Source of the DNA: a virus
Taxonomy: Duplodnaviria > Heunggongvirae > Uroviricota > Caudoviricetes
DNA: 5,562 nucleotides
Reading direction: 5' to 3' (one strand)
Virus record (IMG/VR): IMGVR_UViG_2585427777_000004
Span: 1 to 5,562 of that record
The notes beneath the pieces were generated by a model that was given only the letters and a program-made list of their open reading frames with translations, was not told the DNA's origin and did not search any database. Shown in pieces: positions 1 to 5,562 of this stretch. Within the stretch, counting starts at the first letter, position 1, and every line of letters begins with the position of its first letter. A program made the translations under genes and the position numbers.

Positions 1-392
1 GTAAATGGCTTATCGTCAGGATTACCCCAACAGCAATTACCCCTGGGCCATCCATGTACTTTCCGTACTCTTCCGTTAACAACGTGAAGTAATCCCCAGC
101 CGGGAGGTAAATCCTCAACTGAAATAATTTCCGGCTCACTAATAAAGAATCGCCAGTCGCCCATGCCAAGTGAGGGATTTTTACGGAAACGCTTTTTTCT
201 ATCTGCCAACAAGTCAGCACGAGAACACTTCGCCTCTATCAGGCATGATGCTGAATTTCTGAATCCCATAGCATCTGGCTGTTCTCCGGTACTGGTTACA
301 GCAACAAAGCGGTCATGAAAGCAAACCTTGAACCCGTTGCGCTTAAGGAACTTGTACGCAATCTGACAGAGTTCGTGGTGTGTTAACGCCAT
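1..392 (-). CDS. Hypothetical protein, N-terminal ~130 aa only (gene runs off the window start); possible PD-(D/E)XK nuclease-like fold
   Basis: Hand translation of the minus strand from ATG at 392..390 gives an open frame to position 1 (MALTHHELCQIAYKFLKRNGFKVCFHDRFVAVTSTGEQPDAMGFRNSASCLIEAKCSRADL...). SD-like AAAGGAGAG lies 5 nt upstream. The stop of the upstream gene (TGA 396..394) and this ATG form TGATATG. A PD ... EAK motif pair (PDAMGF, then CLIEAKCS about 12 residues later) resembles the PD-(D/E)XK nuclease core. Not in the supplied ORF track because it is open-ended. Confidence 0.45.
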   Translation of the reverse strand, partial: MALTHHELCQIAYKFLKRNGFKVCFHDRFVAVTSTGEQPDAMGFRNSASCLIEAKCSRADLLADRKKRFRKNPSLGMGDWRFFISEPEIISVEDLPPGWGLLHVVNGRVRKVHGWPRGNCCWGNPDDKPF

Positions 393-393
393 A

Positions 394-930
394 TCACTCT
401 CCTTTGATGCGAATGTCAGCGACGCGTAATGCGTGTTCTAGGTCAATCAGGTAAAGCCAACAGCCATTTTCTTTAGGTATCATGACTTGTCGCTCATCTG
501 CATTTATCGGGTGTCCATATCGAAGGTCGTAGCGAGTCGGTAATTGAACTTCCCGCGCTTCCAGTTCAGCAATACGCTTGCACCCATCAGAGATAACTCC
601 CTCGTAATACTCGCGCTGCTCGTTGAGTTTTGATTTTGTCTCCTCAAGCTCAACGCGCAGCTTCCCAACCGTAAGCGCAATATCCTCGTTCTCCTGGTCG
701 CGGCGTTTGATGTATTGCTGGTTTCTTTCCTGTTCATCCAGCAGTGCCAGCACGGTTTCTGGTCCGGTCAGAAATTTGAAGGCGTTGAGCGCATCAATAT
801 CCACACCGTAATCTTTAAGTTCCTGTTCACTTAACAAGTCATCATCAGCTGGCAACATTAACAGGCGTTCCATTGCTGGAATTGCACGTTCCGCCACCTC
901 ACGCAGTGCCTGGTAATTAATTTCGCTCAC
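394..930 (-). CDS. Ead/Ea22-like family prophage protein (178 aa), coiled-coil rich
   Basis: ORF track 394..930 (-). GTG start at 930..928 preceded by AAAGGAGG with 6-nt spacing. The N-terminus MSEINYQALREVAE matches, from memory, the conserved N-terminal motif of Ead/Ea22-like proteins of lambdoid prophages. Central region is rich in charged heptad-like sequence (QERNQQYIKRRDQENEDIALTVGKLRVELEETKSKLNEQREYYEG). GTGA start/stop overlap with the upstream gene. Confidence 0.6.
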   Translation of the reverse strand: MSEINYQALREVAERAIPAMERLLMLPADDDLLSEQELKDYGVDIDALNAFKFLTGPETVLALLDEQERNQQYIKRRDQENEDIALTVGKLRVELEETKSKLNEQREYYEGVISDGCKRIAELEAREVQLPTRYDLRYGHPINADERQVMIPKENGCWLYLIDLEHALRVADIRIKGE

Positions 931-946
931 TGGTTGCCTCCTTTGC
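888..946. repeat. Copy A of a ~59-bp duplicated module (5' end and RBS of Ea22-like genes)
   Basis: gttccgccacctcacgcagtgcctggtaattaatttcgctcactggttgcctcctttgc; about 50 of 59 positions identical to 1573..1631 by hand alignment. Covers the first ~13 codons, GTG start and AGGAGG SD of the 178-aa gene. Confidence 0.6.
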
Positions 947-1433
947 GAAGCTGGGCAGCAAAGTCAACTAACCACTCAGTCATTTCAACCTTCCCTACCA
1001 AGTCTGAACCAGGGTACATACAGCAATCACTCTGCGCCGCTTTGAAATCCTTATACTCATATTCTTGGGCCACCAGATTTTTTGCAGCTTCTATAGCAGC
1101 ATCCACCCCCTGCGCCCGGACTTCAGCCAGGAAAGCATCAGTGGTTGGCGTTTCAGGTATCTGTCTCCTCATCCGTTCTATTGCATGATTGAACCCGAAG
1201 TCTTCCGCGAGAGATACGTCATCCATATTGTCATTGTCATCTTCAATATCCCGTGATTCTGGAATTGCAGACTTTATTCCCGCATTCTCCGCTGCCAGCG
1301 CCGCGCACTTGGCCTCAAGAGCGGCAACCACTTCCTGATGGTCTTTGTACTTAACGTATGAGCCGGAGATGTCATCACCTTCGGTGTTTAGCCATGCGTC
1401 ATTGCAATTCACTGCGTAGGTTCTGATGCTCAT
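927..1433 (-). CDS. Acidic hypothetical protein (~168 aa); start placed at internal ATG 1433
   Basis: ORF track 927..1490 (-). I prefer the internal start at 1433..1431 (MSIRTYAVNCNDAW...) because it has an SD (GGGAGAG, about 7-9 nt upstream) and forms an ATGA overlap with the stop of the 61-aa ORF (TGA 1432..1430). Stop TGA 929..927 overlaps the GTG start of the next gene. Protein is acidic (IEDDNDNMDDVSLAEDFGF). Confidence 0.5.
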   Translation of the reverse strand: MSIRTYAVNCNDAWLNTEGDDISGSYVKYKDHQEVVAALEAKCAALAAENAGIKSAIPESRDIEDDNDNMDDVSLAEDFGFNHAIERMRRQIPETPTTDAFLAEVRAQGVDAAIEAAKNLVAQEYEYKDFKAAQSDCCMYPGSDLVGKVEMTEWLVDFAAQLRKGGNQ

Positions 1434-1615
1434 GTTGATGCTCTCCCGCCCCTGACAGACGCCAGGCCAGTCAATAAAGTATCCGCACAATGCCTACCCT
1501 CAGACGTGCGCGCAGGATAAATGCCGTTATGACCCGGCAAAATATATGCTACCCATTCATCTTGCGTTGCCTGTTCCGCCGCCTCGCGCAGTGCCTGATA
1601 GTCAATCTTGCTCAC
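1430..1615 (-). CDS. Short Ea22-like N-terminal-module protein (61 aa); possibly a truncated paralog
   Basis: ORF track 1430..1615 (-). GTG start at 1615..1613 preceded by AAAGGAGG, in a ~59-bp block about 85% identical by hand alignment to the start region of the 178-aa Ea22-like gene. N-terminus MSKIDYQALREAAEQATQDEW parallels MSEINYQALREVAERA. After about 30 residues the sequence loses similarity to the paralog. Confidence 0.4.
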   Translation of the reverse strand: MSKIDYQALREAAEQATQDEWVAYILPGHNGIYPARTSEGRHCADTLLTGLASVRGGRAST

Positions 1616-1631
1616 TGGCAGCCTCCTTTGC
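1573..1631. repeat. Copy B of the ~59-bp duplicated module (5' end and RBS of the 61-aa Ea22-like ORF)
   Basis: gttccgccgcctcgcgcagtgcctgatagtcaatcttgctcactggcagcctcctttgc; direct repeat of 888..946 in the same orientation. Confidence 0.6.
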
Positions 1632-1916
1632 CGGGATTTCTAACTTTTGAGTGGTTGTATCAAATTCAAACAACTTAACCACGTCATCAAACAGGACATA
1701 ATCACCATCAGGATTTTCAGTCATATCTGCGCCACAATCCTGACCGCACGAGTCGCAACCATCCATATCAAGCTCGTATCGCTTCAGGTTTGCGATATTT
1801 GATAAATTCAGCGCCAGTACAGCCAGGTCATAAACCTCTTCGGCAGTGACATCGCTGTTCAGTCCCATTTCATGGCGATATATGATTTTTTCTACTCGTT
1901 GTTTTGTGATCGTCAT
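1602..1916 (-). CDS. Acidic hypothetical protein (~104 aa; start uncertain, alternative ATG at 1868)
   Basis: ORF track 1602..1940 (-). Preferred start ATG 1916..1914 (MTITKQRVEK...) with GGAG about 11 nt upstream; an alternative ATG at 1868..1866 lies 1 nt after the stop of the upstream membrane-protein gene. C-terminal half is very acidic (DMDGCDSCGQDCGADMTENPDGDYVLFDDVVKLFEFD). Stop overlaps the next gene start by 14 nt. Confidence 0.45.
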   Translation of the reverse strand: MTITKQRVEKIIYRHEMGLNSDVTAEEVYDLAVLALNLSNIANLKRYELDMDGCDSCGQDCGADMTENPDGDYVLFDDVVKLFEFDTTTQKLEIPAKEAASEQD

Positions 1917-2187
1917 TTTTCTCTTCACTCCGATATACAAGGATTACTACCCCCCCTCTGCTGATTGCGCGAGCTGGATCCCCTGGTTCCATGCCGTCAA
2001 TTCCGAAGGCTTCGGAAAACGCATTCATTGCCTTCTGGCGTTCATCCTGCTTACGGCGTTTATTCCATTTTTTCAGGAACAACAGCGACAGCCACCGTCC
2101 GCTGCAGAACACGATGTAAAAATAACCAAGGAGCGCCAGGCCGACATTCAGGGCCGTTTCTATGGTTAGTTGTGAGTCAGTTGCCAT
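1870..2187 (-). CDS. Small predicted single-pass membrane protein (105 aa)
   Basis: ORF track 1870..2187 (-). ATG 2187..2185 overlaps the last 11 nt of the 279-aa gene (ATGGCAACTGA). Acidic N-terminus (MATDSQLTIET), a ~25-residue hydrophobic stretch (ALNVGLALLGYFYIVFCSGRWLSLLFL), then a basic cluster (KKWNKRRKQDERQK), consistent with positive-inside topology. The antisense plus-strand ORFs here look like shadow frames. Confidence 0.5.
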   Translation of the reverse strand: MATDSQLTIETALNVGLALLGYFYIVFCSGRWLSLLFLKKWNKRRKQDERQKAMNAFSEAFGIDGMEPGDPARAISRGGVVILVYRSEEKNDDHKTTSRKNHISP

Positions 2188-3016
2188 TTCTTACCTGTTT
2201 AAGTAACTGGTTGAACATAACACTTAGGGGATTGCTGTATCCAAACGGCAGATTGTTTACGCAGTACAGAATCATTTTGTTTTTTTCTCCAGTTCGTACT
2301 ATTAACCCATTCCACAATAACCGTGATAATTCATTACTGATAGAAGTTGCGCTTCTTCCAAGTGCGAGGGATATATCTTCTCTACTGCAATCTGGATTTT
2401 CCTGGATATACTCGATAACGGTCATGTGGTCCCTTTTACTTAATATCTGTTCGGATTGCATGCCATGAGCATTCATTTCGTTAATAATTTCATCCAGAAG
2501 GATTTCAAGCCCTTCTCGACCCATATCTGAAAGAATGAAACCTTTATCAGGGGAAGTAGTGAGCATTTTCTGATAAAGAAACAGCGCTCTTCCCATTCCT
2601 TCAGCTTCGCCGTATTTTTGAATTAAATTCCATTCAATATACTGTTGTAAGGCAAATCGAATGGGGCCGGGATATATCGTCATAAACCCATACATCCCGT
2701 TATATACCACGGCGTGTTCAGTTGTTCCGTGTTCATTCAGGATATCAATTGTGCCGTTCTTGTCTTCTTCTTCGTTGATGAATGTCGTCACATACAACCA
2801 TCGCCACTGAGCAACCTTCATCTCAACCGGAAGTTTACCCAGTAATCCTGCTTCGTCGGCTTGCGCCAGACACTGAAGGATACGTAAACCTCGCACATTA
2901 GGAGTATCGAATTCTCCGGCATCCAGACGACGTATGGCGTCGTGATAATCAATCGTCATACTGCCAGTTCGTATACCATTGGCTGTTGCTTCAGCCTGGA
3001 ATTCATCGTATTGCAT
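2177..3016 (-). CDS. 279-aa protein: unrecognised ~200-aa N-terminal domain plus C-terminal winged-helix DNA-binding domain
   Basis: ORF track 2177..3016 (-). ATG 3016..3014 with GAGGA 9 nt upstream; only 5 nt after the stop (TAA 3024..3022) of the 62-aa gene. C-terminal segment DCSREDISLALGRSATSISNELSRLLWNGLIVRTGEKNKMILY follows the helix-turn-helix-wing pattern of CRP/FNR-type C-terminal domains (compare CRP [40 protein letters not shown], recalled). No known motif recognised in the N-terminal 200 aa. Local GC is low (about 33-40% in sampled 60-nt lines). Confidence 0.65.
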   Translation of the reverse strand: MQYDEFQAEATANGIRTGSMTIDYHDAIRRLDAGEFDTPNVRGLRILQCLAQADEAGLLGKLPVEMKVAQWRWLYVTTFINEEEDKNGTIDILNEHGTTEHAVVYNGMYGFMTIYPGPIRFALQQYIEWNLIQKYGEAEGMGRALFLYQKMLTTSPDKGFILSDMGREGLEILLDEIINEMNAHGMQSEQILSKRDHMTVIEYIQENPDCSREDISLALGRSATSISNELSRLLWNGLIVRTGEKNKMILYCVNNLPFGYSNPLSVMFNQLLKQVRNGN

Positions 3017-3021
3017 GATAT

Positions 3022-3210
3022 TTATTCCTCATCTTCATCTTCATCTGCTGGTGCAATAACGTCATATCCTGCCTTTTCTGCAATAAACAGGAATGTTGAA
3101 AGAGTTCCTACAAGTTCATCGTCATGAACATGGCGAATGAATATTACTTTCCCGTTTTTGATGGTCAGCAATATTCTGGTTTGTTCGTGTTCTGCTGTTT
3201 TCTGATGCAT
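3022..3210 (-). CDS. Small acidic protein (62 aa) with poly-acidic C-terminal tail
   Basis: ORF track 3022..3210 (-). ATG 3210..3208 with GGGAGA SD 5 nt upstream. Sequence ends APADEDEDEE. Stop TAA 3024..3022 is followed 5 nt later by the 279-aa gene ATG. Confidence 0.5.
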   Translation of the reverse strand: MHQKTAEHEQTRILLTIKNGKVIFIRHVHDDELVGTLSTFLFIAEKAGYDVIAPADEDEDEE

Positions 3211-3212
3211 TA

Positions 3213-3326
3213 TTATCTCCCGTATGCTTTACGCAGAAATAAGCAGGCAATATGCATGTAATTTTCACCGTATTGTGCAATAAGGCAGGCGGTCTTGTGT
3301 GATGCCATATTCTTTATAAAAGTCAC
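3213..3326 (-). CDS. Candidate small leader ORF (37 aa), not in the supplied track
   Basis: Hand translation of the minus strand: GTG at 3326..3324 preceded by a perfect AGGAGG (3339..3334) with 7-nt spacing; frame reads (M)TFIKNMASHKTACLIAQYGENYMHIACLFLRKAYGR and stops at TAA 3215..3213, 2 nt before the ATG of the 62-aa gene. An internal ATG (3308..3306) would give 31 aa. Evidence is SD strength and tight coupling only. Confidence 0.25.
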   Translation of the reverse strand: MTFIKNMASHKTACLIAQYGENYMHIACLFLRKAYGR

Positions 3327-3404
3327 AATAAAGCCTCCTGTGGATTAAGGTTGTAACAATCCCCGGCGATAAAACCGCAATAAACGTTCAGGGCATATTT
3401 GTTG

Positions 3405-3770
3405 TTATTGCGCTAATTCTTTTTCGGCAGCAGCTTTTGTATACTCACATGCAAAACTCAGAATTTCGCTGCCGAGTGTTTTCGTTTCGTGATTACTGGA
3501 CATATGTAATACCTGTGTTGCATGCAATAAATGATAAACATTTACCGCAAATGAATCAGGCTCCAGACAAATGCCTTCGTAATTATCTTGCTGTGAGGTT
3601 GTTTCTGTCATTGCTCCTGAAGTGCATGCGAGCCTGTTTTTGACAATTCTCTTTTCTCTAATCACTATATCGGCAACATCTATTGCCTTTACAACCTCCG
3701 GGAGAAGTTCCGGGTTTGTATAATCAAAGTCATCAACATGGAGAACAGTTATGTTTTCGAACTTTTTCAT
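3405..3770 (-). CDS. Hypothetical protein (121 aa), acidic, no recognised domain
   Basis: ORF track 3405..3770 (-). ATG 3770..3768 preceded by GAGGAAGCC. Sequence MKKFENITVLHVDDFDYTNPELLPEVVKAIDVADIVIREK... has no motif I recognise. Flanked by non-coding gaps of about 128 bp upstream and 194 bp downstream. Confidence 0.55.
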   Translation of the reverse strand: MKKFENITVLHVDDFDYTNPELLPEVVKAIDVADIVIREKRIVKNRLACTSGAMTETTSQQDNYEGICLEPDSFAVNVYHLLHATQVLHMSSNHETKTLGSEILSFACEYTKAAAEKELAQ

Positions 3771-3785
3771 GGCTTCCTCAGCTGA

Positions 3786-3837
3786 CTTATATGTTCTGCT
3801 ATATAGCGAGTCTCAGAAGTGTTTTCATATTGAGACT
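3786..3837 (-). promoter_or_regulatory. Possible promoter/operator upstream of the 121-aa gene: -10-like TATAAG plus a 7-bp perfect inverted repeat
   Basis: On the minus strand, CATATAAG (complement of 3791..3786) lies about 15 nt upstream of the ATG at 3770. Inverted repeat AGTCTCA (3809..3815) / TGAGACT (3831..3837) with a 15-nt spacer lies just upstream of that. No convincing -35. Confidence 0.3.
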
Positions 3838-3855
3838 GTTTCCGCAATGATTGAT

Positions 3856-3886
3856 AAAAATGTTCGCATGTACCTTGAAGGGCGAA
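3856..3886 (-). terminator. Weak intrinsic-terminator-like hairpin plus T-tract downstream of the 167-aa HTH gene
   Basis: Minus-strand RNA: 5-bp stem (3886..3882 pairs with 3867..3863, UUCGC/GCGAA), 14-nt loop, then CA and UUUUU (3860..3856), starting 13 nt after the stop at 3899. Short stem and long loop, so weak at best. Confidence 0.2.
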
Positions 3887-3898
3887 GCGGCGATTATG

Positions 3899-4402
3899 TC
3901 ACCATTGGTATTGGTTCTTCCGCAGAAGAGCTTCGCGAGATAAGGGGCAAACTTGTTGAGATGCGTCATGGTGTTGCTGCTCCTCACTTTTTGGTTGCTC
4001 CGGAGGAGTAACCTCACCAGTTAACAGGCACATCGGATCGCAGCCAAGAATATTTGCCAGTGGGATAAGCATACTGATAGTTGGTTCATACTCTCCGCTC
4101 TCCCACTGGATGATAATTTCTTCATCGAGATCGAGCAGCCTGGCGAGTTCGGCGGTTGTTAAGCCGCAGGCTTCGCGTTGGGTGCGAAGACGGTTGTTGA
4201 TTGCAGAATTTTTGTTCTGTAAAAGCATTGCTGACGATAGCTTTCTGGATATGCTATTTGTCATATCCCATGCCAGTCCTGCGCATGACTCTATATCGCT
4301 AGAGAGCGTAGCATCAGGTGTTGCTTTTGCTATTAGTGTAATGAGGCTGCCGAGGTTTTTCAGTTCTTCGAGACAGTCAAGAGTTGTAGCTTTATTGATC
4401 AT
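3899..4402 (-). CDS. Atypical HTH (XRE/Cro-C1-type) DNA-binding protein (167 aa) with the HTH in the C-terminal half
   Basis: ORF track 3899..4402 (-). ATG 4402..4400 with GAGGT about 9 nt upstream. Residues ~65-125 (INNRLRTQREACGLTTAELARLLDLDEEIIIQWESGEYEPTISMLIPLANILGCDPMCLLTGE) match the XRE-type HTH pattern (helix, GxT turn, recognition helix, conserved W/E). It is preceded by a ~60-aa N-terminal segment and followed by a ~40-aa Q/E/P-rich tail. Internal ATG at 4228 lacks an SD. The antisense plus-strand ORF 4110..4409 is Ser/Arg-rich low complexity, supporting minus-strand coding. Confidence 0.6.
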   Translation of the reverse strand: MINKATTLDCLEELKNLGSLITLIAKATPDATLSSDIESCAGLAWDMTNSISRKLSSAMLLQNKNSAINNRLRTQREACGLTTAELARLLDLDEEIIIQWESGEYEPTISMLIPLANILGCDPMCLLTGEVTPPEQPKSEEQQHHDASQQVCPLSREALLRKNQYQW

Positions 4403-4445
4403 GAGATGATACCTCAGTTACGAACTTTGTTTTATGGTAACTAAG

Positions 4446-4485
4446 GTATCAAGGTGTGGCAAGTGATTTTTGATACTTTGGTTTC
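4446..4485. promoter_or_regulatory. OL-like operator: inverted repeat GGTATCAA-N16-TTGATACT carrying a copy of the TTGATACTTTGG motif
   Basis: ttgatactttgg at 4470..4481 is identical over 12 bp to 5209..5220 in the OR-like region. ggtatcaa at 4446..4453 is its inverted partner. Lies in the 103-bp gap between the repressor stop (4506) and the start of the 167-aa HTH gene (4402), the position expected for OL/PL. Confidence 0.45.
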
Positions 4486-4505
4486 TTTTTGTGTTTTGTG
4501 TCTGG

Positions 4506-5162
4506 TCAGAAAATATCCCATCTGGCATCAACCACAACACCTACTATTTCGCAATCATTGTCCATTTCTATGATTGGATATTGTGGATTAAGGGGCTTTA
4601 GAAACGCCTTTCCCATGTCAGAAATATATTTTTTGAATGTTGCTTCATTGGTGGATTTTTTTCTGGCGATGACGTAACACCCTGAAAAAACTTCTTTATC
4701 TGGGTTGACAAGGATCGACATTCCTTCAGGAAATGTTATTCCTACGGGCGAAGTCATTGAGTCTCCGTGCACTTCCAGCCAGAACCCCCTCTCACCAGCG
4801 TATTTTACAGAATGCCTCCAATTATCCTGATCATACATGTTGTAGTCATCACCAGAAGTTGCGAATAATCCTGCCTGAACCCAGTTAATTACAGGGTAAG
4901 AGTGTGCTGTGTCTCTCTGTGGGCAGCTCTTAACATTATTTTCCCAATGCTTATCTTTTTCATCTCCGTTCTGAAGCCACTGCGGTGAACACCGCAGTGC
5001 AGCTGCAACTTTAAAAAGGGTGTCACCGTTGAAACTTTTTGTAAGGCCTTGCTCGGCTTTACTTATTGCAACTCTGGTGACCCCAGCTTTTTTAGCCAAC
5101 GCATCTTGTGTTAACCCAGCTTTTTGCCGTGCGTTGATGAGACGTTCACCTAAAGACTTCAT
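4506..5162 (-). CDS. cI: Phage CI/C2-family repressor (218 aa): N-terminal HTH plus C-terminal LexA-like S24 autopeptidase domain
   Basis: ORF track 4506..5237 (-), trimmed to ATG 5162..5160 (MKSLGERLINARQKAGLTQDALAKKAGVTRVAISKAEQG...) which has a strong SD AGAGGAG about 7 nt upstream. By recall the sequence is collinear with P22 C2: HTH GLTQDALAKKAGVTRVAIS, probable Ala-Gly cleavage site in NWVQAGLF, catalytic Ser in HGDSMTSP, catalytic Lys in ATFKK, and a C-terminal block ATFKKYISDMGKAFLKPLNPQYPIIEMDNDCEIVGVVVDAR versus P22 ATFKKLVMDAGRKFLKPLNPQYPMIEINGNCKIIGVVVDAK. Confidence 0.9.
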   Translation of the reverse strand: MKSLGERLINARQKAGLTQDALAKKAGVTRVAISKAEQGLTKSFNGDTLFKVAAALRCSPQWLQNGDEKDKHWENNVKSCPQRDTAHSYPVINWVQAGLFATSGDDYNMYDQDNWRHSVKYAGERGFWLEVHGDSMTSPVGITFPEGMSILVNPDKEVFSGCYVIARKKSTNEATFKKYISDMGKAFLKPLNPQYPIIEMDNDCEIVGVVVDARWDIF

Positions 5163-5273
5163 TTTTCTTCTCCTCTCATGGCTGTTGATACTAAAGTAAC
5201 AGAATTTCTTGATACTTTGGGTTCCTGTGGTTAACATCGTTGGATAACAAAGTATCTGGTGTGAGACTAAAGA
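5163..5273. promoter_or_regulatory. Divergent immunity control region (OR / PRM / PR analogue) with three TTGATAC-type operator-like sites
   Basis: Intergenic region between the repressor start (5162) and the first plus-strand ORF (5274). Sites ttgatactaaagta (5185..5198), ttgatactttgggt (5209..5222) and an inverted partial site ggataacaaagtatc (5242..5256, GATA-N6-TATC). Possible rightward promoter: -35 TTGATA (5209..5214), 17-bp spacer, -10 TAACAT (5232..5237). Promoter calls are by eye. Confidence 0.5.
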
Positions 5274-5501
5274 ATGACCCTTTATGAAATATTAAAAATT
5301 CAATTTAAAACCAATGCCGCTATTGGTCGCAGGTTCCCAAAGAAAGGAAGGCCTCGTGGCAGTCAAGGTGTTGGAAAGTGGAAAACGCGAGGTGTTCCGG
5401 AGGATGTTGCCATTCTTTGTCATCTGGATCCGAGCATTCCATATACACACCCAAGTCTAGCGAATACAGAAGATGACAAGCCCACAGGAGACCAACAATG
5501 A
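5274..5501 (+). CDS. Hypothetical small basic protein (75 aa); weakly supported
   Basis: ORF track 5274..5501 (+). First ORF on the rightward side of the immunity region. Basic stretch AIGRRFPKKGRPRGSQGVGKWKTRG. Stop TGA overlaps the ATG of the next gene (ATGA at 5498..5501). No strong SD and no HTH pattern, so it may be an untranslated leader. Confidence 0.3.
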   Translation: MTLYEILKIQFKTNAAIGRRFPKKGRPRGSQGVGKWKTRGVPEDVAILCHLDPSIPYTHPSLANTEDDKPTGDQQ

Positions 5502-5562
5502 ACACCGCAATTTTTAACGGCAAAGCATCCATGACCAGCGTTGAGATCGCAGAGCTGGTGGG
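5498..5562 (+). CDS. Rha-like phage regulatory protein, N-terminal 21 aa only (gene continues beyond window end)
   Basis: ATG 5498 preceded by AGGAG (5486..5490) with 7-nt spacing. Translation MNTAIFNGKASMTSVEIAELVG; the S-x-EIAEL-x-GK pattern matches, from memory, the N-terminus of Rha-family (Phage_pRha) regulators. Only 65 nt are available. Confidence 0.4.
   Translation, partial: MNTAIFNGKASMTSVEIAELV

Follow-up and report, generated by a model that had tools for sequence, protein, structure and literature searches.

Copies of a short motif, TTGATAC, recur on both sides of a phage repressor gene, which raises the question of whether they are the operators of a conventional genetic switch, the arms of an unusual operator, or sequences with some other role. 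The locus lies within a 5,562-nt stretch of a caudoviral genome (IMG/VR record IMGVR_UViG_2585427777_000004, positions 1 to 5,562), referred to here in its entirety as the window. In an initial annotation, the repeats were likened to OL and OR, the left-hand pair was read as an operator of unusually long spacing, and the same inverted repeat was proposed to fold as a hairpin.

The window was identified as the immunity region of an Escherichia coli prophage resembling phiP27. Its repressor, CI, has the architecture of the lambdoid repressors, with an N-terminal helix-turn-helix domain (HTH_3, 1.6e-14) and a C-terminal S24, LexA-like domain (Peptidase_S24, 3.2e-22) recognized by Pfam. The lambda CI structure 3bdn matches it at 8.9e-34, and it is 45% identical to P22 C2 over 211 aligned residues. 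The residues of the autocleavage set, Ala97-Gly98, Ser135 and Lys177, are conserved. Beside the repressor gene lies a divergent gene in the position of cro, as in a lambdoid switch, and its 75-aa product is predicted to adopt the Cro fold from the fold search only. A Pfam search of this ORF gave no match, even at E = 10, the PHROGs search returned 'unknown function' only, and hhalign against P22 Cro gave a probability of 3%. CI and a Cro-fold gene were found together in every locus compared. The features of the region are collected in Table 1.

Table 1. Genes, predicted promoters, predicted operator sites and candidate hairpin of the immunity region, in window coordinates.
Feature	Coordinates	Strand	Description
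First gene of PL operon, 167-aa HTH_3 protein	3899..4402	-	HTH_3 2.5e-10; phrog_4836 'CII-like regulator' 3e-39
Site F, third OL site	4406..4423	+	ATGATAC CTCA GTTACGA; 14.6 bits; overlaps ribosome-binding region of first leftward gene
Predicted PL	4434..4462	-	TTGCCA-17 nt-TACCAT, promoter scans; drives leftward operon
Site E, OL1-like	4435..4452	-	TTGATAC CTTA GTTACCA; 21.1 bits; spans PL spacer and -10
Inverted repeat (E against D) and T-rich run	4439..4500	+	Candidate plus-strand hairpin; low confidence as functional RNA
Site D, OL2-like	4470..4487	+	TTGATAC TTTG GTTTCTT; 26.4 bits, top match of the window; upstream of PL -35
CI repressor gene, 218 aa	4506..5162	-	HTH_3 N-terminal domain and Peptidase_S24 C-terminal domain
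Site A, OR3-like	5185..5202		TTGATAC TAAA GTAACAG; 15.0 bits on either strand; nearest CI start codon
Site B, OR2-like	5209..5226	+	TTGATAC TTTG GGTTCCT; 22.1 bits; left half TTGATA is the PR -35
Predicted PR	5209..5237	+	TTGATA-17 nt-TAACAT, promoter scan; drives cro-like gene
Site C, OR1-like	5241..5258	-	CAGATAC TTTG TTATCCA; 14.7 bits; covers ~+1 to +14 of predicted PR transcript
Cro-family gene, 75 aa	5274..5501	+	Cro fold by fold search; annotated hypothetical everywhere

The repeated unit is an 18-bp pseudo-palindrome, TTGATAC-N4-GTwwC-nn, with a 7-4-7 layout and an imperfect dyad of GATAC. Judged by sequence comparison, the TTGATAC motif very probably marks six such sites for CI and Cro, with A, B and C to the right of the repressor gene and D, E and F to its left. 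The sites were located with a weight matrix built only from the loci of CI homologues in other genera (53-85% identity). Because GATAC occurrences in the homologues served as its anchor, this matrix favours that core by construction, while the window's own sequence was excluded from it. Exactly six matches were obtained in the window, of 14.6-26.4 bits, none of them outside the two intergenic regions on either side of cI; the next-best match scored 8.5 bits, and the mean best match in shuffles was 8.4. Within the phiP27 genome, five of the six sites rank at the top, but the equivalent of site C, at 7.7 bits, falls below one stray 12-bit match elsewhere. The weak half-sites are quite degenerate, and A, C and F score only ~15 bits. 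Across 42 sites the dyad is seen in the invariant G at position 3 and C at position 16. This clustering of dyad sites of one family in both intergenic regions beside a repressor gene is the arrangement of a lambdoid switch. Site D additionally lies over an A-rich stretch resembling an UP element.

The repeats reported initially were all recovered within these sites. The 12-bp repeat TTGATACTTTGG is exact at both 4470-4481 and 5209-5220, and the third related copy, TTGATACT(AAAGTA), was located at 5185-5198. The GTATC half-site does occur at 5252-5256, but the inverted partner is of nine rather than five nucleotides (CAAAGTATC, 5248-5256, the reverse complement of GATACTTTG). Likewise, the left half-site GGTATCAA exists, but occupies 4445-4452 rather than 4446-4453, so that the gap separating it from TTGATACT is 17 nt and not 16. 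A sixth related site, ATGATACCTCAGTTACGA at 4406-4423 (site F), lies just beyond the range covered by that annotation and was missed there. The exactness of the 12-mer repeat is itself at chance level for 5.5 kb, with ~0.9 pairs expected under a uniform base model, and it was rejected as evidence by itself because a second, unrelated exact 12-mer pair, taken as a control, occurs in the window at 3339/4582. The placement of the motif copies and their membership of one family, on the other hand, are not chance. A genome-wide count had been suggested as a check on enrichment, and in the 42.6-kb phiP27 genome TGATAC occurs 23 times, five of them within ~215 bp of the two intergenic regions; GATACNNNNGTWAC occurs three times, in each case inside these regions. 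The proposal that operators flank the repressor as OL and OR do is supported by these OL/OR-like clusters beside a CI-type gene.

The second suggested check, conservation in related prophages, was made across 14 loci whose CI proteins are 53-100% identical, using leave-one-out matrices. The informative range of 53-85% identity was drawn from a protein database and contig look-ups; a scan of contigs, with one genome per species, returned only distant CI relatives (<=51% identity), which served for contrast only (L006). The sites are kept at equivalent positions. Centre-to-centre spacings of 32 bp (C-B) and 24 bp (B-A) are found in all 14 loci, and the D-E spacing is 34-36 bp throughout and 35 bp in the window, within intergenic DNA that is otherwise unalignable. 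Site B is nearly invariant as TTGATACTTTGGATTCTA across genera, and site E is invariant in five E. coli-lineage sequences and holds the same position in every genus. Site A is the weakest OR site in most other genera, where GCTAC replaces GATAC. Some relatives carry more symmetrical versions: site D of L052 is a perfect palindrome, GATACTTTAGTATC (GATAC-N4-GTATC), and site C of the Stx2a phage is a near-perfect one, GGATAC TTAA GTATCG, in which the core GATAC-N4-GTATC is perfect. Site F is missing from L043-L046 and L049; the window, phiP27, the Stx1a and Stx2a phages, VL46, L047, L048, L050 and L052 all have it. Among the E. coli-lineage sequences, substitutions spare 87 of 108 positions within the sites, as compared with 58 of 106 outside them (Fisher p = 7e-5), and the GATAC cores are invariant at 29 of 30 positions.

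In most of the 14 loci the recognition helix of CI reads VTRVAISKAEQGLTK; L046 and L049 differ from it by one Q to L substitution. In Serratia sp. Ag1 (L006), the helix is VSRMAISKIEMG and the half-site TGTAAAC, with a retained geometry of 32/24/34, and in L051, where the helix carries both T to S and Q to L changes, the half-sites are of GACAC type. Operator sequence thus appears to change together with the recognition helix, in what are few independent cases (L006 and L051).

The sites also overlap the predicted early promoters in the manner of a lambdoid switch, with the -35 of PR inside site B and site E over the spacer and -10 of PL. Transcripts are predicted to begin near 5244 from PR and near 4427 from PL. 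The PR -35 is followed by a TAnnnT -10 at 17-nt spacing in 13 of the 14 loci. Equivalents of PL stand in the same place in the other loci, with a -35 of TTGCSN or TTGACA and a -10 of TAC(C/A)(A/T)T. A consensus promoter scan found none for cI, and when PRM was sought by hand on the 14-locus alignment, no candidate combined a credible -35 with a suitable placement with respect to site B. For the possible -10 hexamers within site A, site B would be centred near -31 to -37. The classical activating position is -42, so that activation of PRM from site B cannot be inferred, and autoregulation is an analogy.

These positions suggest how the switch might work. The six operators would be contacted by the helix-turn-helix domain of a CI dimer, and most likely also bound by the Cro-fold product of the divergent gene. 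Since B holds the PR -35 and C covers the PR start, occupancy of the two would shut off cro and the rightward early genes. By analogy, cI would be autoregulated from site A, which lies immediately before the CI ribosome-binding site. On the left, E may act over the PL spacer and -10, D just upstream of the PL -35, and F over the ribosome-binding region of the first leftward gene. Because the Ala-Gly, Ser and Lys residues of the autocleavage set are all present in CI, the repressor should be inactivated by SOS-activated RecA, with both promoters then released. We infer binding itself, the assignment of each protein to its sites and the affinities involved, and cooperativity between sites. The C-B distance of 32 bp, as opposed to 23-24 bp between OR1 and OR2 of lambda and P22, means that the rules of cooperativity cannot simply be copied.

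Sites D and E could also act at the level of RNA. The inverted repeat at 4439-4483 and the T-rich run at 4484-4500 may form a plus-strand hairpin or intrinsic terminator which, in addition to or in place of the operators, would stop rightward antisense transcription, for instance from the ORF at 3751-4011(+), ahead of its head-on entry into cI. The hairpin proposed initially does fold in the phiP27 lineage: the plus-strand RNA has a predicted energy of -15.6 kcal/mol (z -3.2) and forms a 17-pair stem with a 13-nt loop, followed by UCUUUUUGUGUUUUGUG. The CI-sense strand folds far worse (-5.5 kcal/mol, z -0.3), because G:U pairs become C-A mismatches. Additionally, the plus-strand ORF upstream belongs to a PHROG family, and in the phiP27 lineage no other terminator-like element was found between it and cI. 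The stability of the fold is nevertheless variable, with z-scores from +0.8 to -2.4 among the 14 loci and only -8.7 kcal/mol in the Stx1a phage, and where the Stx phages have TATG in place of TTTG in site D, site E shows no compensating change, which is not the behaviour of a conserved structure. Nor does the element resemble an intrinsic terminator beyond its U-rich tail, as the stem is rich in A/U and G:U pairs, with only ~2-3 G-C pairs, and closes a 13-nt loop. The terminator scan did not call the hairpin at 4439-4500, and no known RNA family in Rfam matched positions 4300-5400. Two operators in opposite orientation account fully for the inverted repeat. A terminator is consequently unlikely, and the hairpin is best seen as a consequence of the two inverted operators. 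An intrinsic terminator does follow cI in other genera and is absent from the E. coli/phiP27 lineage. There, the D/E pair and its T-rich tail could have a second job as a strand-specific hairpin or terminator shielding cI from convergent antisense transcription, in which case nothing but CI at OL would keep PRM transcription from reading through into the leftward lytic operon. The chances of this are slim, but if true, one DNA element would be both a protein operator and an RNA insulator.

The same pair was first described as one operator, GGTATCAA-N16-TTGATACT, of unusual spacing. In its corrected form, GGTATCAA-N17-TTGATACT, it would be a single long-spaced operator of novel geometry, bound by one repressor dimer or tetramer. 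The strong half-sites do face each other across 17 nt, and this arrangement is kept in 14 of 14 loci. However, the two arms belong to different 18-bp sites (E and D, respectively), in each of which the arm is the strong half and has a partner half-site 4 bp away, and these 18-bp units score 21-26 bits with the matrix from other genera. Units of the same kind also stand singly, as A, B, C and F, and relatives have perfect 14-bp palindromes at the same positions. Furthermore, P22 OL1-OL2 produces the same 35-bp layout from two ordinary 18-bp operators, and the conserved PL -35 hexamer sits within the 17 nt. A single long-spaced operator is therefore very unlikely, and the description as one operator was abandoned in favour of two ordinary sites.

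Another possibility is that the sites serve a regulator other than CI or Cro, whether the 167-aa CII-like protein or a host factor. The 167-aa protein has an HTH_3 domain and matches a 'CII-like regulator' PHROG, and site F overlaps its own ribosome-binding region, as the site of an autoregulator might. Yet the motif and its spacing persist in six of the nine other loci although no called HTH_3 gene follows CI there, whereas CI and the Cro-fold gene occur in every locus. The 167-aa protein belongs to the regulated unit and is not a likely binder of the sites. A host-factor site would hardly be kept only at these positions in Escherichia, Serratia, Photorhabdus, Xenorhabdus and Morganella, and yet have changed with the CI helix in Serratia sp. 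Ag1. Recognition by another regulator is accordingly highly improbable. Least credible of all is that the repeats are mere promoter hexamers or chance A/T-rich repeats with no repressor-specific role. TTGATA matches the -35 consensus at five of six positions, the copy in B is the predicted PR -35 and the exact 12-mer alone is at chance level in the window, but only B among the six copies is placed as a -35. On its own strand D is followed by neither a -10 nor a gene, E falls between the two hexamers of PL, and C and F are downstream of predicted starts. Moreover, 16-18 bp are conserved with dyad symmetry and fixed spacing across genera, and in L006 the motif changes along with the recognition helix.

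The reading that remains, with CI and Cro at six 18-bp operators, amounts to a conventional genetic switch of the P22/lambda style, without any unusual operator design. The closest counterpart is the P22 C2 system, which is also the cI type of phage 21. Read from the P22 sequence, its operators are likewise 18 bp long, with 7-bp outer half-sites and a 4-bp centre, and three stand on each side of the repressor gene. Its OL pair is also 35 bp apart; the PL -35 separates the two sites, and the one nearer to the promoter covers the spacer and -10. The P22 half-site, however, is ATTTAAG rather than TTGATAC, and the recognition helix is SNVAISQWER rather than TRVAISKAEQ. OR spacing in P22 is 23/25 bp, whereas it is 32/24 bp here, where the PR -10 lies in the C-B gap. 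The third OL site of P22 lies beyond OL2, unlike site F, which is downstream of PL over the ribosome-binding region. The cI gene here has a Shine-Dalgarno leader, unlike that of P22, and the terminator that follows the P22 repressor gene is missing from the phiP27 lineage.

With lambda, the locus shares the gene order of leftward operon, OL/PL, cI, OR with divergent promoters, and cro, as well as one pair of adjacent sites 24 bp apart. The C-terminal domain is clearly homologous to that of lambda CI, including the conserved Ala-Gly, Ser and Lys, but the N-terminal domain is only distantly related, and the lambda operators are 17 bp long and of other sequence. The first PL gene of lambda encodes the N antiterminator, in contrast to the HTH protein here, and site B is off the OR2 activating position for any PRM proposed. 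Operator number varies among Stx phages, with three OR and two OL sites in 933W and four OR sites in H-19B (Tyler et al. 2004; Shi and Friedman 2001, as cited in PMC8065619). These are likewise lambdoid Stx-phage immunity regions with a variable number of sites, and the third OL site is optional among the relatives compared here. They are nonetheless of different immunity types, and the repressors of the 933W-like phages are only ~34-36% identical to the CI described here.

A literature search on the phiP27 operators and repressor and on TTGATAC, with the original phiP27 genome paper outside its scope, returned no description of the sites, and the only non-gene features annotated in the phiP27 record are attL, attR and cos. 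What is new is the set of sites of this switch, not previously written down; the concept adds nothing to the lambda/P22 paradigm. The consensus TTGATAC-N4-GTATCAA, the site map and the predicted PR and PL provide a ready design for binding and reporter work, and a widespread family of 'hypothetical' genes gains a name (Cro). The operator map can also be used to predict shared immunity among these prophages, and offers a starting point on how repressor-operator strength relates to spontaneous induction and Shiga-toxin release. Among 5,426 complete E. coli genomes, 195 carry this immunity type, some of them ST131 strains, as do converting phages of the Stx2e (phiP27), Stx1a and Stx2a types. The same recognition helix, or one with a single Q to L change, is also present in Kosakonia, Serratia, Yersinia, Photorhabdus, Xenorhabdus, Providencia and Morganella.

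The intergenic regions on either side of the CI repressor gene carry six putative operators, sites A-C on the right (OR) side and D-F on the left (OL) side, and the switch to which they belong is of a P22-C2-like and lambda-like immunity type with a new specificity, TTGATAC. Judged from its bases, each site is an 18-bp unit of 7-4-7 form that pairs a consensus half with a weaker, imperfect reverse-complement half. CI homologues were taken from the protein database in a manner that avoided circularity, and nine loci of other lineages were used. Over the range from 85% down to 53% CI identity, no residue of the recognition helix (VTRVAISKAEQGLTK) varies apart from a Q to L change found in two of the nine loci (L046 and L049). 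The intergenic DNA of these loci cannot be aligned with the window except for the same sites in the same places. When a weight matrix is made from the GATAC-anchored 18-mers of the nine loci alone, its positions 3 (G) and 16 (C) are invariant, which constitutes a dyad signature. In the window this matrix finds precisely six sites, which score 26.4 (D), 22.1 (B), 21.1 (E), 15.0 (A), 14.7 (C) and 14.6 bits (F), against 8.5 bits for the next-best match and a mean best score of 8.4 in shuffled windows.

Operators, genes and predicted promoters of the immunity region
Feature	Coordinates	Strand or position	Sequence (oriented) or support
Site A			TTGATAC TAAA GTAACAG
Site B			TTGATAC TTTG GGTTCCT
Site C			CAGATAC TTTG TTATCCA
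Site D			TTGATAC TTTG GTTTCTT
Site E			TTGATAC CTTA GTTACCA
Site F			ATGATAC CTCA GTTACGA
CI-type repressor, 218 aa	4506-5162	minus	HTH_3 1.6e-14; Peptidase_S24 3.2e-22
HTH_3 protein, 167 aa	3899-4402	minus, same strand as CI, left of CI	
cro-position ORF, 75 aa	5274-5501	divergent from CI, on its right	
Predicted PR	5209-5237	plus	TTGATA-17-TAACAT; promoter scan
Predicted PL	4462-4434	minus	TTGCCA-17-TACCAT; promoter scan

The initial annotation had proposed operator-like repeats around the repressor gene, and a scan of related prophages bears this out, with the sites kept at equivalent positions in 14 loci. Leave-one-out matrices recovered the layout in all of them; the centres of C and B lie 32 bp apart and those of B and A 24 bp apart throughout (14/14), D and E are separated by 34-36 bp, and nine of the loci have, 24-29 bp past E, a third left site that the other five lack. 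Within the E. coli lineage, 87 of 108 positions inside the sites are invariant versus 58 of 106 outside (p = 7e-5), as are 29 of the 30 positions of the GATAC cores. GATAC-N4-GTATC forms a perfect palindrome at site D of the homologous locus L052 and a near-perfect one at site C of a Stx2a phage.

As to the protein that binds, every locus has both CI and the small divergent gene, together on the same contigs, and the motif occurs with or without a called HTH_3 gene after CI, such a gene being missing from six of the nine other loci. The CI relative of Serratia sp. Ag1 (L006; 51% identity) has a different recognition helix, VSRMAISKIEMG, and its operators (1403-1476 and 2214-2265 of that locus) retain the 32/24/34-bp geometry with TGTAAAC half-sites. 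Here nature has varied the specificity of the switch and left its architecture as it is. A Yersinia ruckeri relative combines helix changes of T to S and Q to L with GACAC-type halves. Such change of the half-site alongside the helix is what one expects of immunity-specific operators.

Some details of the repeats as first noted require adjustment. The 12-mer TTGATACTTTGG is indeed exact at both 4470-4481 and 5209-5220, and TTGATACT recurs as a third copy at 5185. The right inverted partner, GTATC, lies at 5252-5256 as reported, but the match extends over 9 nt (CAAAGTATC, 5248-5256) instead of 5. GGTATCAA occupies 4445-4452, so that 17 nt instead of 16 separate it from TTGATACT, and a sixth copy, ATGATACCTCAGTTACGA (4406-4423), had been overlooked. 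The exactness of the 12-mer is insignificant in 5.5 kb, because ~0.9 such pairs are expected by calculation and an unrelated exact pair exists at 3339/4582. The placement of the repeats, unlike their exactness, is significant: 5 of 23 TGATAC copies and 3 of 3 copies of GATACNNNNGTWAC in the whole phiP27 genome (42.6 kb) fall within the two intergenic regions, which together measure ~215 bp. Operator-like clusters stand on both flanks, but what was formerly described as a single long-spaced operator on the left consists of two, E and D, which point in opposite directions and enclose the PL -35. Nor is this geometry unusual, as had been suggested, since P22, read from its sequence, shares the left layout of 18-bp operators, with OL1 and OL2 35 bp apart centre to centre and TTGACC between them. 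The OR sites of P22 are 23 and 25 bp apart; the present region differs in geometry from P22 and lambda solely in its 32-bp C-B spacing, where the PR -10 occupies the gap.

The promoter matches place the predicted PR -35 in the strong half of site B, and site E over the spacer and -10 of predicted PL. Homologues show these arrangements too, 13 of 14 loci in the case of PR. Site C lies over the predicted start of PR, and site F over the ribosome-binding region of the leftward operon's first gene. Site D, placed on an A-rich stretch, adjoins the PL -35 on its upstream side, and site A is 18-30 nt ahead of the cI start codon. By the classical mechanism, which is the most likely one here, CI dimers would occlude PR and PL, Cro would work at the same sites, and RecA-stimulated autocleavage would lift CI repression. 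No placement was found for PRM, the cI maintenance promoter; with any of the candidate -10 hexamers in site A, the centre of site B would fall roughly between -31 and -37, compared with a lambda-like -42, and positive autoregulation is therefore unsupported. The A-rich run spans the weak half of D and its flank (4467-4487, minus strand), just upstream of the PL -35, with equivalents in L043-L049 and the form GAAAAAAAAGTATCAA in several genera. An UP element would be expected at this spot, so that competition between site D and the alpha subunit of RNA polymerase is conceivable.

The left inverted repeat had also been proposed to form a plus-strand hairpin. It does fold in this lineage (-15.6 kcal/mol, z -3.2; CI-sense strand only -5.5 kcal/mol, z -0.3), but a functional RNA element is very improbable: the stem is rich in A/U and G:U and closes a 13-nt loop, terminator scans do not call it, Rfam gives no match, its stability over the 14 loci ranges from z +0.8 to -2.4, and in Stx phages site D changes without compensation in site E. 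In L043-L050, from other genera, a strong GC hairpin and T8 terminator directly follow the CI stop codon. Such a terminator is lacking after this codon in the window (4482-4508), phiP27, the Stx phages and L052, and site D starts 18 nt past it, or only 2 nt past it in the case of L052. PRM transcripts would consequently enter the same-strand PL operon, unless blocked, e.g. by bound CI or Rho.

The surrounding 921 bases share 96.8% identity with the immunity region of phiP27, a Stx2e phage, and ~87% with those of several Stx1a and Stx2a converting phages; among 5,426 complete genomes of E. coli, 195 carry them, as one chromosomal copy in every case. CI matches lambda CI at 8.9e-34 and P22 C2 with 45% identity over 211 residues, and its cleavage site (Ala-Gly) and catalytic pair (Ser and Lys) are conserved. 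Conservation of the 75-aa ORF among Enterobacterales is very high (63-95% identity), and its stop codon shares bases with the ATG at 5498 that opens a Rha-like gene. This ORF is ‘hypothetical’ in every source (PHROG 4749, ‘unknown function’). In predicted fold it comes closest to Cro of N15, Xfaso 1 and P22. The HTH_3 protein, whose gene opens the leftward operon in the place of lambda's N, matches a ‘CII-like regulator’ PHROG (3e-39) and varies in length (138-216 aa) and C-terminus among close relatives. The phiP27 record carries no operator annotation, and no description of these sites was found in the searchable literature, which does not include the original phiP27 paper, where an earlier description is possible. 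The sites are useful for ST131 prophages and Stx phages of this immunity type, and will not surprise a specialist.

The HTH_3 ORF (3899-4402, minus) converges with an opposite-strand ORF (3751-4011, plus) over a 113-nt overlap, and the pair have end-to-end matches to phrog_6104 and phrog_4739. Only the minus-strand ORF is annotated in RefSeq for strain MLI109, and the shorter HTH gene of phiP27 does not overlap its plus-strand neighbour. A 279-aa ORF (2177-3016, minus) has weak winged-helix matches (MarR_2, HTH_24 and HVO_A0114) in its C-terminal 80 residues, the remainder matching no named family. Two minus-strand ead/Ea22-like ORFs, 394-930 and 1430-1615, the latter of only 61 aa and apparently truncated, have 5' ends that correspond to a 65-nt direct repeat (882-946 and 1567-1631; 83% identity).
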